From contig JAUSKZ010000001.1 in the NCBI GenBank assembly GCA_030646805.1, positions 1 through 36,764 of the forward strand: DNA of 36,764 bases, read 5' to 3'. The stretch comes from Candidatus Daviesbacteria bacterium (GTDB taxonomy: Bacteria > Patescibacteriota > Microgenomatia > Daviesbacterales > UBA10151). This document shows positions 11,284 to 14,363 of the stretch, piece by piece. The notes beneath the pieces were generated by a model. It searched no databases. It was given only the letters and a program-made list of their open reading frames with translations, and was not told the origin of the DNA. Numbering within the stretch: the stretch's first letter is position 1; each line of letters begins with the position of its first letter. Both the position numbers and the translations under genes were made by a program.

Positions 11284-12215
11284 TTCCACGAGAAGTTTTG
11301 CTCTACCCATTTCAGTAACTTTTCTGTTTCTTTAAACCTATTATCACTACCCAAAACTATTGTTAAAATTTTTCTATCTTTAATCTCCACTAAACCAACT
11401 AGGTTTTCTTTAGCCTGAGGAGTGGTTCCAGTTTTAATCCCGATTACCCCGGGTAAATCCAACAGCTTATTTAAATTTGTTAAGTGGTGAGTATATGATT
11501 TATCAACCGATGAAACGGATGTCTCACGGGTTGCAAAGATCCTAACTAAATATGGATCCTCAAGAGCCAAGACCGATATTTTGGCCAAGTCTGAAGCAGA
11601 TGAGTAGTGATTGGGACTATCAAAACCAGCCGGATTATCAAACTTACTACTTAAAAGCCCCATTTGAAATACTTCTTGATTCATGGCAGCGATAAAACTA
11701 GCTCTACCTCCGGGATAGTTATCAGCGATGGTAAAAGCCGCATCATTACCGGAATTTAAGAGCAAACCGTAAAGCAGTCCCCGAAACATAATCTGCTCAC
11801 CCTTTTTGAGTCCCATGGAAGATCCTCCAGCTTCGGATAAATCATACACAGTTAATATTTGGTTAGGTTTAAAATATTTAGTGGCCACCAGGGCAGTCAT
11901 AATTTTAGTAGTTGAGGCGATCGGGACTTTTTTATCTACTTCTTTGGAAAAAAGGACGGTATCTGAATCCAAATCCCAAACGAGGGATGCAACAGCTGAG
12001 ATTTCCGGAGGTGAGAGACCTAGGCTCTTTGGCACTTGGATCAACATTTCCGAGCTAGTATCGGCTTTATCTAAAACTAGACCTTCGGCCGAAATCAAAT
12101 TACTAGGAACTTGGATTATTAACTCTCCTTGTAATTTATTTAAAGCTTGGGGCAGTCCCATGATTAACACTACTGCGGCAATCAAAGCCCCAAGAGACAA
12201 AATTACTGGTTTCAT
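11280..12215 (-). CDS. D-alanyl-D-alanine carboxypeptidase (peptidase S11)
   Basis: SxxK (ASTTK), SGN, KTG motifs; N-terminal anchor. Confidence 0.93.
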   Translation of the reverse strand: MKPVILSLGALIAAVVLIMGLPQALNKLQGELIIQVPSNLISAEGLVLDKADTSSEMLIQVPKSLGLSPPEISAVASLVWDLDSDTVLFSKEVDKKVPIASTTKIMTALVATKYFKPNQILTVYDLSEAGGSSMGLKKGEQIMFRGLLYGLLLNSGNDAAFTIADNYPGGRASFIAAMNQEVFQMGLLSSKFDNPAGFDSPNHYSSASDLAKISVLALEDPYLVRIFATRETSVSSVDKSYTHHLTNLNKLLDLPGVIGIKTGTTPQAKENLVGLVEIKDRKILTIVLGSDNRFKETEKLLKWVEQNFSWN

Positions 12216-13537
12216 TTCAAAGAGGAAAGCCTGATATCAACCCTTTCCATATCCCGGGGAAAAAGCGAAGCCTCCCGAACGTTGGACAACCCTAAAATAT
12301 GCATCACAATTCTTTCCGATCCAAATGAAAATCCACCCTCAGGGGGCATACCATATTTAAAGGCTTGCAAATAAAGCTCGCTTTTCTTAATGTCTACTCC
12401 CCGCGCGCTGGCTTTCTCAGTTAAAAGTTTGACGTCATTAATTCTTTGTCCGCCAGTCATCCACTCAGTCCCTCGGCCCAATAAATCAAAGCTTAAAGTA
12501 TAGCCTGGATCAGACTCGTCTTCGAAGGTATAAAAGGGGCGTTTGGAAACTGGATAGTGAGTGATAAAAATTAAGTCTGATTCTTTTTCTTCTAAAGCCC
12601 ATCTACAAATTTCCCGCTCGTCTTCCGGTTCTAAATCCGGCTCTTTCCTATTATCCCTGCCGGTTCTTTTAAAGATTATTTCTTGAGCTTCTCTTAACTT
12701 AATATGGGGAATTGTCTCTGGAACTTTTGGAATAGAGGTATTATATGAAGTTAATATCGGACTTGTCTCTTTCTCCACCCGCTCTAAAATATATTTTATA
12801 GAGTACTCTGCCATCTCCATCACATCTAACCAACTATCGATAAATCCAAACTCGGCGTCCAATGTTGTGGCTTCAGTTAAGTGGCGGGTTGTCACCGAGG
12901 GTTCGGCTCTTAAGGTTTTATTGACCGTAAACACTCTCTCAAAAACCCCCACCATAATCTGTTTGTAAAATTGTGGGCTTTGGGCCAAATATGCTTTATG
13001 TTCAAAGTATTTAATCTCAAAAACCTCTGAACCGCCTTCGGCTGCTTGGGGGATAATTACCGGTGATTGAAACTCAGTAAAATCTTTTTTCTTTAAAGAT
13101 TCCCGGAAAGCATCTATCACCACTTCCTGGACTTTAAAAATCTCCTTAATTTTAGGGTGCCTTAAAGTTAAGCCTCTAAAATCTAAAAGGGTGGGGAGTT
13201 GTAAATCTAACTCTTTCCCTCCCATATCAAAAGGTAACTCTTCAGCCTTTGATACAATTTCTATTTTTTCGGCTTGAAGTTCCACCTTACCGGTGGGTAA
13301 ATTTGGATTAATTAACTTCGGAGGCCTAGAGGCAACCTTGCCTTCTACACAAACTACGTCCTGTGGTCCTAAATCTTTAACCTGTTCACCACTGCAAACA
13401 ACTTGCAAAACTCCGCTTCGATCTAAAATATCCAAGAAAGCGATCTTGCCGTGATCACGTCTAGTTTGAACCCATCCACAAATCTTGACCGACTCGTTTA
13501 CTTTATCATTACAATCTAAAACCAAAGTTCTCTGCAT
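12212..13537 (-). CDS. aspS: aspartate--tRNA ligase, short archaeal-type (probably non-discriminating)
   Basis: OB-fold GWVQTRRDHG, LAQSPQFYKQ, motif 2 RAE...RHLTE, motif 3 GMPPEGGFSFGSER; no GAD insert. ATG at 13537 preferred to TTG at 13543. Confidence 0.88.
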   Translation of the reverse strand: MQRTLVLDCNDKVNESVKICGWVQTRRDHGKIAFLDILDRSGVLQVVCSGEQVKDLGPQDVVCVEGKVASRPPKLINPNLPTGKVELQAEKIEIVSKAEELPFDMGGKELDLQLPTLLDFRGLTLRHPKIKEIFKVQEVVIDAFRESLKKKDFTEFQSPVIIPQAAEGGSEVFEIKYFEHKAYLAQSPQFYKQIMVGVFERVFTVNKTLRAEPSVTTRHLTEATTLDAEFGFIDSWLDVMEMAEYSIKYILERVEKETSPILTSYNTSIPKVPETIPHIKLREAQEIIFKRTGRDNRKEPDLEPEDEREICRWALEEKESDLIFITHYPVSKRPFYTFEDESDPGYTLSFDLLGRGTEWMTGGQRINDVKLLTEKASARGVDIKKSELYLQAFKYGMPPEGGFSFGSERIVMHILGLSNVREASLFPRDMERVDIRLSSLK

Positions 13538-13575
13538 GCCCAAATCATAACAACTAACTTTAGCCTTGACAATAC

Positions 13576-13797
13576 TTATTCACCTTTTCGCTTATTGACT
13601 AAAAGATCGCAGATTTGTCTGGGATCTTGCCTAATTAGATCCAGTAACTCTTGAAAAGATTTTAATATCTGACCTTGGTCGCTCTGGACATGACGATGCG
13701 CTTTACCCATTACGATGTTTGAAGATAATTCTTGAGTTCTTTGTTTAACAACGTCAGGGCCAAGAACTCCTTGTTCAACTCTAGTTTCAACTACCAT
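13576..13797 (-). CDS. hypothetical protein (73 aa) downstream of aromatic attenuator
   Basis: Strong SD AAAGGAGGTGA upstream of ATG at 13797; no recognised motif. Confidence 0.7.
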   Translation of the reverse strand: MVVETRVEQGVLGPDVVKQRTQELSSNIVMGKAHRHVQSDQGQILKSFQELLDLIRQDPRQICDLLVNKRKGE

Positions 13798-13834
13798 AAT
13801 TATCACCTCCTTTCTTTTTATTTAAAAAATCCAC

Positions 13835-13858
13835 AAAAAAACCTCCCGTTAGGGAGGC
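13835..13858 (-). terminator. intrinsic terminator of aromatic-amino-acid attenuator
   Basis: minus strand GCCTCCC-TAAC-GGGAGGT followed by a T run. Confidence 0.85.
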
Positions 13859-13889
13859 ATATTGGTTTTTAAATTGTGTCTATTTTTAT

Positions 13890-13964
13890 TTAGACACTAA
13901 CCAACCGCCTCCCGAGAGAGGTAAACCAAAAGAAATAACAACTTTTGGTAGATTGGCTTAACAT
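13890..13964 (-). CDS. attenuator leader peptide MLSQSTKSCYFFWFTSLGRRLVSV (24 aa)
   Basis: Five consecutive aromatic codons, followed by alternative 1:2, 2:3 and 3:4 pairings; promoter directly upstream. Confidence 0.75.
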   Translation of the reverse strand: MLSQSTKSCYFFWFTSLGRRLVSV

Positions 13965-13971
13965 TAGAGTG

Positions 13972-14001
13972 ATCTTATCAAAAAGATCTTTTTATTGTCA
14001 A
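13972..14001 (-). promoter_or_regulatory. sigma70 promoter for aromatic leader
   Basis: TTGACA (14001-13996), 18 nt, TAAGAT (13977-13972) with extended TG; ATG 7 nt downstream. Confidence 0.7.
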
Positions 14002-14246
14002 TAATAAAAAGGCAGATTTAGGTATTCCGGATCTAGAACTCTGTTGGGTCCAATCCACAAACCCTTAACTTTTTCAACCATTGAGCGCCTGTTTCCAACT
14101 ACTAACCTAACTCTTTCTCCGGCTGTATCAAAAATAACGCGCCTGGCTTCCGGATCAATCCGCAGTTCACCTAGAGCTGTAAAGACTTTAATGTTTCTAC
14201 AATCTCTAAATCTTTCAATTTTTCTTCCACTCTTTATTTCTATCAT
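13998..14246 (-). CDS. hypothetical basic protein (82 aa)
   Basis: SD AGGAGGT before ATG at 14246; own promoter; the ORF-track TTG start coincides with the -35 box. Confidence 0.65.
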   Translation of the reverse strand: MIEIKSGRKIERFRDCRNIKVFTALGELRIDPEARRVIFDTAGERVRLVVGNRRSMVEKVKGLWIGPNRVLDPEYLNLPFYY

Positions 14247-14268
14247 CTTAGTTACCTCCTTTTTAAAG

Positions 14269-14297
14269 ATTCTACTCATCTTTAATCTCCCTGTCAA
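14269..14297 (-). promoter_or_regulatory. sigma70 promoter
   Basis: TTGACA (14297-14292), 17 nt, TAGAAT (14274-14269). Confidence 0.7.
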
Positions 14298-14340
14298 TGA
14301 AGCTCCACGGTTTTACGACCGTAGTTTCTTCTCAGCTTCA
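14297..14340 (+). repeat. degenerate left-end copy of the hairpin element found in the PIN gene
   Basis: ATGAAGCTCC-ACGGTT-TTAC-GACCGT-AGTTTCTTCT versus ATGAAGCTCCC-GCGGGC-TTAC-GCCCGG-GGTATCTTCT at 30302. Confidence 0.6.
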
Positions 14341-14363
14341 CAGCTTTAGCTGATAAATTATTC

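Follow-up and report, generated by a model that had tools for sequence, protein, structure and literature searches.

A putative regulatory element was analyzed in a 36,764-nt stretch of DNA from a Candidatus Daviesbacteria bacterium (assembly GCA_030646805.1, contig JAUSKZ010000001.1), herein referred to as the window. The element occupies positions 13835–14001 and, like all features of the window described below, is read on the minus strand. It lies downstream of an 82-aa open reading frame (ORF) and upstream of a 73-aa ORF (13576–13797), which is preceded by a strong Shine-Dalgarno (SD) sequence, AAGGAGGTGA, at 13812–13803. The next genes on the same strand are aspS, for the aspartyl-tRNA synthetase, and a gene for an S11 D-Ala-D-Ala carboxypeptidase. 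An initial annotation, made from the DNA letters, had described this gene order and interpreted the element as an aromatic attenuator resembling that of Escherichia coli pheA; the 73-aa ORF with its strong SD and the two genes behind it were confirmed.

The element begins with a promoter-like site (13972–14001), found by a consensus scan with 10 of 12 matches. It consists of a -35 hexamer TTGACA (14001–13996) and a -10 hexamer TAAGAT (13977–13972), separated by an 18-nt spacer containing TG. After a gap of 7 nt from the end of the -10 hexamer, the ATG of the leader ORF follows. This ORF, MLSQSTKSCYFFWFTSLGRRLVSV (13890–13964), has 24 codons plus TAA and lacks an SD sequence. Judging from the promoter-like site, transcription would start a few bases before the ATG, which predicts an mRNA that is leaderless or almost leaderless. 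Codons 10–14 are TAT TTC TTT TGG TTT (Y F F W F; 13923–13937) and are herein referred to as the regulatory codons.

The regulatory codons abut segment 1, ACCTCTC (13916–13922), which can pair with segment 2 or, in the minimum-energy fold, with segment 4. Segment 2, GGGAGGC (13913–13907; with its extension GGGAGGCGGTTGGTT, 13899–13913), has two alternative sets of partners: segment 1 together with the 5' domain, or segment 3. The latter, GCCTCCC (13858–13852; with its extension AACCAATATGCCTCCC, 13852–13867), forms the antiterminator with segment 2 or the terminator with segment 4, GGGAGGT (13847–13841), which is followed by a run of seven T to 13835 (segment 4 with the run, 13835–13847). In the terminator scan, the 3:4 hairpin has 7 pairs, 5 of them G-C, a loop of 4 and a T run. 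The tip of the antiterminator is an inner hairpin, GTGTCTA/TAGACAC (13876–13897), and the leader stop codon (13892–13890) lies inside it, 3' of segment 2. In the ribosome-free RNA, a 5' domain (13925–13958) is formed by a hairpin, ACCAAAAG/CTTTTGGT, in which 13949–13942 pair with 13932–13925, and by a long-range helix joining early leader codons to the nucleotides immediately 3' of segment 2. The segments, codons and helix extensions listed in the initial annotation were all found at its minus-strand coordinates.

Folding of the 151-nt region gave -46.1 kcal/mol (z-score, z = -5.0), and none of 200 shuffled sequences folded as well. Both alternative structures proposed in the initial annotation stood out in the same comparison: the 2:3 antiterminator reached -27.7 kcal/mol (z = -6.7) and the 3:4 terminator -12.7 kcal/mol (z = -3.8), with 0 of 200 shuffles as good in either case. 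For the 5' domain together with helix 1:2 (13964–13898), the energy was -20.8 kcal/mol (z = -3.2), matched by 1 of 200 shuffles. According to this model, it is proposed that the 5' domain and helix 1:2 sequester segment 2 and act as an anti-antiterminator. In the minimum-energy fold of the whole leader, helix 1:4 is nested around helix 2:3. Since the outer stem still abuts the T run in this fold, the ribosome-free RNA looks terminating in either conformation. A terminator and an antiterminator that exclude each other, with the aromatic run abutting segment 1, were obtained computationally.

The element is very probably a transcription attenuator of the ribosome-mediated (leader-peptide) type, which responds to how well the cell is supplied with charged aromatic tRNAs. 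Transcription would begin at its own promoter just before the ATG, and the leader would be translated without an SD sequence. With charged aromatic tRNAs available, the ribosome would reach the stop codon in the inner hairpin and cover segment 2; in the absence of a ribosome, segment 2 would be held by segment 1 and the 5' domain. In either case the 3:4 hairpin, as in the computed folds, could form and transcription would be expected to end at about 13835. When Phe-, Tyr-, or Trp-tRNA is scarce, the ribosome would stall at codons 10–14, cover segment 1 and melt the 5' domain. Helix 2:3 and its extensions could then form, segment 4 would stay single-stranded, and the polymerase would read into the 73-aa ORF, by analogy with the trp and pheA attenuators.

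The window genome (685 kb in 49 contigs, 90% complete) was compared with a family set of 96 genomes. In a DNA search of the region against 41 relatives, only the terminator part was matched (query positions about 443–471), and these matches are uninformative as evidence of homology. Because DNA homology did not extend beyond the terminator and the 73-aa ORF had no relatives, the DNA upstream of aspS was read directly in the family genomes. The same module was found upstream of aspS in several genera whose AspRS proteins are 62–81% identical. It comprises a promoter-like site, a short ATG-started ORF with a run of F/Y/W codons, GGGAGG/CCTCCC segments, and a T run. The gene that follows it is a different small ORF, a DAHP synthase gene (G011), or a prephenate dehydratase gene (G012).

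A covariance model, R1, was trained on 7 copies of the element and gave matches in 85 of the 96 genomes at E up to 0.01; the conservation statistics were restricted to the 30 best loci. At 29 of these 30 loci, an ATG-started ORF of 16–33 codons was found with at least 4 aromatic residues in 8 consecutive codons, where the most aromatic ORF was taken in each copy, a choice that favours the aromatic count. These 29 confirmed leaders include the 7 training copies. The proposal in the initial annotation had depended on the aromatic codons being conserved in orthologous leaders, and this was found in all 29. The run contains 4–7 aromatic residues in 8 codons, with at least 5 in 27 of the 29 leaders, and stops interrupt the two alternative frames in 52 of 58 cases. 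In the 20 nt before the leader ATG, an SD-like motif is absent from all copies (0 of 29), and a TAnnnT hexamer ends 3–16 nt before this ATG in 28. In total, the leaders contain 123 F, 43 Y, and 25 W; F is present in all 29, Y in 26, and W in 23. The aromatic run lies directly 5' of segment 1 in all copies displayed. The leaders differ in how F, Y, and W are ordered, in run length and in where the stop lies: in most copies it is beyond segment 2, and in the G012 leader it comes right after segment 1. Frame and aromatic content are kept amid this variation, as would be expected of regulatory codons more than of a peptide with a function or an invariable RNA motif.

The structure is likewise conserved. 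In a 30-row alignment, A2, 87.2% of the cells are paired, against a shuffle mean of 80.2% (no shuffle out of 500 as high). Both partners change in 12 of 22 pairs, a number reached by 8 of 500 shuffles; A2 was fitted to R1 and its counts lean towards the structure of the model, and its rows are related to one another, so that the shuffle counts overstate the support. All slid controls score lower. Over the 30 copies, the terminator helix is 98.6% paired and helix 1:2 is 86.6% paired, with 4 of its 7 pairs changing on both sides. The long-range helix was present in the RNAalifold consensus; over the 30 aligned copies, 6 of its 8 pairs change on both sides. When segments 1 and 4 were omitted, helix 2:3 closed the fold in all 29 copies, at -9.8 to -28.7 kcal/mol, and an inner hairpin was present in each of them. 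Outside the invariant core, segments 2 and 3 pair more stably with their own partners than with foreign ones (mean -4.1 vs. -2.8 kcal/mol; 0 of 10000 permutations as low).

The gene downstream was readable for 28 of the 29 leaders. Nine encode DAHP synthases (PF00793), five of them with an ACT domain, and one encodes a prephenate dehydratase. The remaining products have no Pfam family; four are larger proteins and 14, including that of the window, are small ORFs of 65–149 aa. Conversely, 31 DAHP synthase genes were found in 30 of the 96 genomes, and an R1 match lies directly upstream on the same strand of 28 of these genes (coordinates matched by eye). In G024, the DAHP synthase gene stands behind a prephenate dehydratase gene that carries the R1 match; those of G017 and G104 have no match among the R1 matches listed, a list that leaves out 24 others. 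In four cases, the start codon of the DAHP synthase gene follows the T run by 0–2 nt, and there segment 4 would double as the SD sequence of the gene. Codons for all three aromatic residues would be apt for a leader before DAHP synthase, which catalyses the first step of the common pathway.

A search pattern derived from the copies, which fits 18 of the 29, was used to scan one genome for each of 185,579 species. It gave 82 stretches, of which 80 were fetched, and an in-frame aromatic ORF was found in 72 of these 80. By record title, the 80 loci belong to Levybacteria/Levyibacteriota (12), Daviesbacteria (9), Gottesmanbacteria (4), Roizmanbacteria (2), Microgenomates (2), the "Patescibacteria group" (7), other Patescibacteria labels (4), "uncultured Gammaproteobacteria" (28), other labels (8), and true Enterobacterales (4). 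The predicted attenuator family, which is not present in Rfam, is widespread in Daviesbacteria and other Patescibacteria of the Microgenomates group. Among 77 downstream proteins there are 16 DAHP synthases (two more fall just under the cut-off), 10 PfkB-family kinases, 3 dehydroquinate synthases, 2 prephenate dehydratases, 1 PheS, 1 Asp/Glu racemase, and 4 enterobacterial chorismate mutase-prephenate dehydratases (pheA). Another 38 have no Pfam family, and 31 of these are shorter than 155 aa.

Some of these loci deserve separate description. The 28 loci titled "uncultured Gammaproteobacteria bacterium" (within L071–L148; also L077/L110 and L086) have 33–44% G+C. In at least six of them (L071, L075, L092, L097, L102, and L124), the leader peptide and the start of the downstream protein are identical to those of Daviesbacteria-family copies. 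These titles do not match the DNA and are probably placeholders or errors. The PfkB-family kinases (273–313 aa) are encoded directly behind aromatic leaders in L077, L081, L083, L086, L087, L098, L103, L130, L136, and L139; as candidates, they could serve in these lineages as a non-orthologous shikimate kinase or at some other step of aromatic metabolism.

In the proposed mechanism, the 73-aa ORF of the window is the regulated cargo. Its product contains a single aromatic residue in 73, a content below that of 99.8% of the long ORFs of the genome. No Pfam family was found for it at E up to 0.1, and the ACT or DAHP-synthase-like regulatory domain that the initial annotation had suggested looking for was not among the results of the profile searches. 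Searches among 5.8 billion clustered proteins (in the range of 40–128 aa) and in the 96 family genomes returned only the protein itself. In the ESM Atlas there was no usable feature match; the Atlas model has a predicted local distance difference test (pLDDT) score of 0.53 and resembles generic helical folds only. One apparent relative, P0002, was obtained with HMMER among 1.84 billion representatives (E = 1e-6). It was rejected as spurious: it consists of near-identical tandem Myb/SANT-like repeats, and its E-value is the sum over six repeats of a single 25-bit match. The ORF was also considered as a remnant of a DAHP synthase C-terminus, following a match seen by eye (SD..Q.I...F.E.L). This was unsupported by a lineage hidden Markov model (HMM), with -0.4 bits and E = 0.5. 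The model was built from 10 downstream proteins, nine of them Pfam DAHP synthases and the tenth, from L052, without a Pfam match; it was searched against 15 small ORFs, and six-frame translations did no better.

In an all-against-all BLASTP comparison of 15 small ORFs downstream of leaders, only two from one genus match clearly (5e-8), and the weak likeness of the 73-aa ORF to small ORFs of G083 (E = 0.04) and G065 (E = 0.14) is too little for a family. For 41 small ORFs behind leaders, a few of which are the same ORF with a different start, F, Y, and W together make up 3.5% of the residues. The corresponding values in the window genome are 8.6% for ORFs of at least 150 aa and 7.9% for the mostly non-coding ORFs of 60–150 aa. 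Such depletion is not expected of chance ORFs but is expected of proteins intended for synthesis under aromatic starvation. Small hydrophilic proteins can be aromatic-poor for other reasons, too.

The aspS gene (12212–13543) encodes a class II Asp-tRNA synthetase (Pfam tRNA-synt_2, 1.3e-72, and an anticodon-binding OB fold) and was found in 93 of the 96 family genomes. It starts 32 nt 3' of the 73-aa ORF. The initial annotation had raised its co-transcription with the 73-aa ORF, but aspS is probably not regulated by the element. A consensus scan revealed a promoter-like site, TTGTCA-17-TATGAT (13544–13572), directly before the gene; the ATG (13537) lies 6 nt after the -10 hexamer and has no SD sequence. 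The same motif stands directly before aspS in relatives with and without the leader. In the window and in the loci L011–L030, the aspS ATG follows a conserved TTGTCAAG-17-TATGAT-like site by 6–10 nt, which suggests that leaderless mRNAs are common in the lineage. Given its own conserved promoter-like site and the lack of an SD sequence, aspS appears to be expressed on its own leaderless transcript and is probably outside the regulated unit. No terminator-like site was found between the 73-aa ORF and aspS in the terminator scan, and some read-through into aspS may take place.

Several points weigh against the attenuator interpretation. Searches of the window genome, at its 90% completeness, found no DAHP synthase, chorismate synthase, or prephenate dehydratase; therefore, the classical logic of a biosynthetic operon is inapplicable to this copy, and the association with genes for the same amino acids is seen for the family, while the copy of the window heads an orphan. 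The 1:2 hairpin taken alone is weak (-5.6 kcal/mol, z = -1.5, 20 of 200 shuffles as good). The minimum-energy fold, with 1:4 around 2:3, likewise reaches the T run, and for this reason read-through requires that segment 1 be covered. The evidence for leaderless initiation consists of promoter-like hexamers. T-rich DNA readily yields Phe codons, and one off-frame reading reached 6 aromatic residues in 8 codons (G090). The weak R1 matches are mostly generic GGGAGG/CCTCCC terminator modules, and the relatedness of the A2 rows has been noted above. Finally, the upstream ORF (13998–14246) has no terminator of its own, and the 3:4 hairpin may also serve it.

Related genomes resemble the window genome in this respect: none of the three enzymes was found in 16 of the 29 genomes with confirmed leaders, including a one-contig genome and several that are 99–100% complete. 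The sole EPSP_synthase-family (PF00275) match in the window genome (7534–8742), which we take to be probably MurA rather than AroA, was read in this way because the rest of the shikimate pathway was not found. In the window genome and at least 15 related genomes, we tentatively suggest that the attenuator might have been uncoupled from biosynthesis and might be kept as an independent sensor of how much aromatic aminoacyl-tRNA is supplied, turning on small proteins that evolve fast and are poor in aromatic residues. In an auxotrophic and probably host-dependent cell, such proteins could form a starvation or host-interaction response whose members can still be produced once Phe, Tyr, or Trp is exhausted.

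Alternatively, the copy in the window could be the relic of a lost aromatic-pathway operon, that is, a real member of the family with no adaptive role here and with an incidental 73-aa ORF. The missing enzymes and the lack of relatives of the ORF agree with such a history. So does the gene order in relatives, in which the same position between leader and aspS is occupied by DAHP synthase in G011 and G109 and by prephenate dehydratase in G012. Nevertheless, all parts of the device are intact in the window, and the 16 genomes that show none of the three enzymes keep an intact leader before an SD-bearing ORF. The small ORFs, with their conserved strong SD sequences, are also depleted of aromatic residues in comparison with random ORFs (3.5% vs. 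7.9%), and a relic is unlikely.

A structured non-coding RNA with an incidental short ORF, either a trans-acting small RNA of about 130 nt or a riboswitch-like leader that binds a ligand or protein, would account for the strong folds and for a promoter-like site and a terminator of its own. It would also agree with the lack of an SD sequence at the leader ATG and with the complementarity of segment 3 (CCUCCC) to SD sequences, and there is a precedent in the trp attenuator of Sinorhizobium, whose RNA and peptide are reported to act in trans. Yet the aromatic content is specific to one frame and is kept amid sequence variation, with an in-frame ATG in all 29 copies and stops in the alternative frames in 52 of 58 cases; the association with genes of the aromatic pathway agrees with codon sensing, and no Rfam family was found at threshold. 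We regard this explanation as very improbable, although the terminated 130-nt leader RNA with its exposed CCUCCC might act in trans, and such a role could exist alongside attenuation. That the element is a mere intrinsic terminator of the 82-aa ORF, with the leader ORF and the complementarity arising by chance in T-rich DNA, is hardly credible: the upstream ORF does end at 13998 without another terminator, and CCTCCC...GGGAGG terminators are common in these genomes, but the comparative data already contradict this, as the whole module recurs in other genera behind unrelated upstream genes, each time with its own promoter-like site, and precedes 28 of 31 DAHP synthase genes.

The leader-peptide attenuator favoured here was compared with known systems. 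In the whole window, no Rfam family was matched at its gathering score. A T-box was considered because an aminoacyl-tRNA synthetase gene lies downstream; none was found among the 7 Rfam matches at E up to 10 in 13500–14350, and none at the gathering score. The best Rfam match is Phe_leader (RF01859), the enterobacterial pheL-pheA attenuator. The resemblance to it that the initial annotation noted was borne out, although membership in this family was not, as the match reached 27.9 bits (E = 0.023 with 851 bases searched) against a gathering score of 55. In both systems, Phe codons of a short leader ORF form a run that reaches up to segment 1 (TTT ACC/ACT ...), GGGAGG/CCTCCC hairpins are alternatives, and the terminator has a T run. 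Moreover, the pattern derived from Patescibacteria also matches four true pheL-pheA loci of Enterobacterales. In contrast to pheL, the Daviesbacteria leader mixes Phe, Tyr, and Trp codons, lacks an SD sequence, is apparently leaderless, and has its stop mostly beyond segment 2. The alignment with the Phe_leader model covers mainly the terminator. The cargo in Patescibacteria, an unrelated lineage, is DAHP synthase or other genes (an orphan in the window) instead of chorismate mutase-prephenate dehydratase. The mixed codons indicate a family separate from Phe_leader; the likeness could come from either common descent or convergence.

The nearest functional precedent is the aroF leader of Corynebacterium glutamicum. 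Upstream of the DAHP synthase gene of this species (aroR/aroF), a leader peptide with Phe-Tyr-Phe has been read as ribosome-mediated attenuation (PMC4046766; the review PMC11802643, citing Neshat et al. 2014). A reference title in the first of them describes leader peptide translation without a ribosome-binding site in C. glutamicum (PMC4046766). By description, both systems share a mixed aromatic leader peptide upstream of a DAHP synthase gene. They differ in phylum, and in Patescibacteria the aromatic run is longer (4–7 in 8 codons), usually contains Trp (23 of 29), and often precedes a gene outside the pathway.

Two other leaders provide partial parallels. In E. coli, a leader with Phe codons, pheM, controls the Phe-tRNA synthetase genes pheST, as described in a review (PMC11802643). 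A similar arrangement was observed in L128 (titled Levyibacteriota), where the leader before a PheS gene contains four Phe codons in a row. The likeness ends there, as pheS is 1 of the 77 downstream genes and the copy of the window precedes the non-cognate aspS, which has its own promoter. The trpL leader of Sinorhizobium meliloti (rnTrpL/peTrpL) is also a leader-peptide attenuator. Its terminated RNA and peptide are reported to have roles beyond the downstream operon, which offers a precedent for retention for non-biosynthetic reasons; a trans role in Daviesbacteria is a lead only.

What is known of Patescibacteria (candidate phyla radiation) comes almost entirely from genomes, and their gene regulation is poorly understood. 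In the portions seen of the top-ranked papers of a full-text literature search, no leader-peptide attenuator was described for this group. The element offers a recognisable marker with which the regulon for aromatic amino-acid limitation can be searched for, in Daviesbacteria and in records titled Levy-, Gottesman-, and Roizmanbacteria. Such a marker links unannotated genes to aromatic metabolism, including the 10 PfkB-family kinases and several proteins of 260–460 aa without a Pfam family. About 40 small aromatic-poor proteins emerge as a further class; judging by their leaders, they are apparently induced by aromatic starvation even in genomes without the pathway, and through this class the physiology of uncultured auxotrophs becomes directly testable.

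Several minor features were also observed. The 82-aa ORF upstream of the element (13998–14246) has a strong SD sequence and its own consensus promoter-like site (14297–14269), and its stop codon overlaps the -35 hexamer of the leader promoter; no Pfam family was found for its product. Small ORFs from L044 (G084), L046 (G082), and L145 have the common motif C-x6-G-x-C-x2-C, which is absent from the ORF of the window, and may form a small Cys-rich subfamily. Between the leader, or its usual position, and aspS, L051 (G023) and L022 (G089) encode a conserved, unannotated protein of about 262 aa that has no Pfam family and is possibly linked to aromatic limitation.

The thirtieth of the best R1 loci, L068 (G018), contains a different, hydrophobic ORF of 34 aa and represents a second kind of module. 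In this module, a hydrophobic ORF of about 33 aa ending in ...LGGLF(R) runs into GGGAGGTC...GACCTCCC...GGGAGG and a T run, followed by another gene. Besides L068, it was found on the opposite strand upstream of aspS in L014, L023, L024, L025, L029, and L030. The second module explains some of the weaker R1 matches, for example, those on the opposite strand just upstream of aspS, and it looks like a different leader or a small membrane protein gene with the same terminator design.

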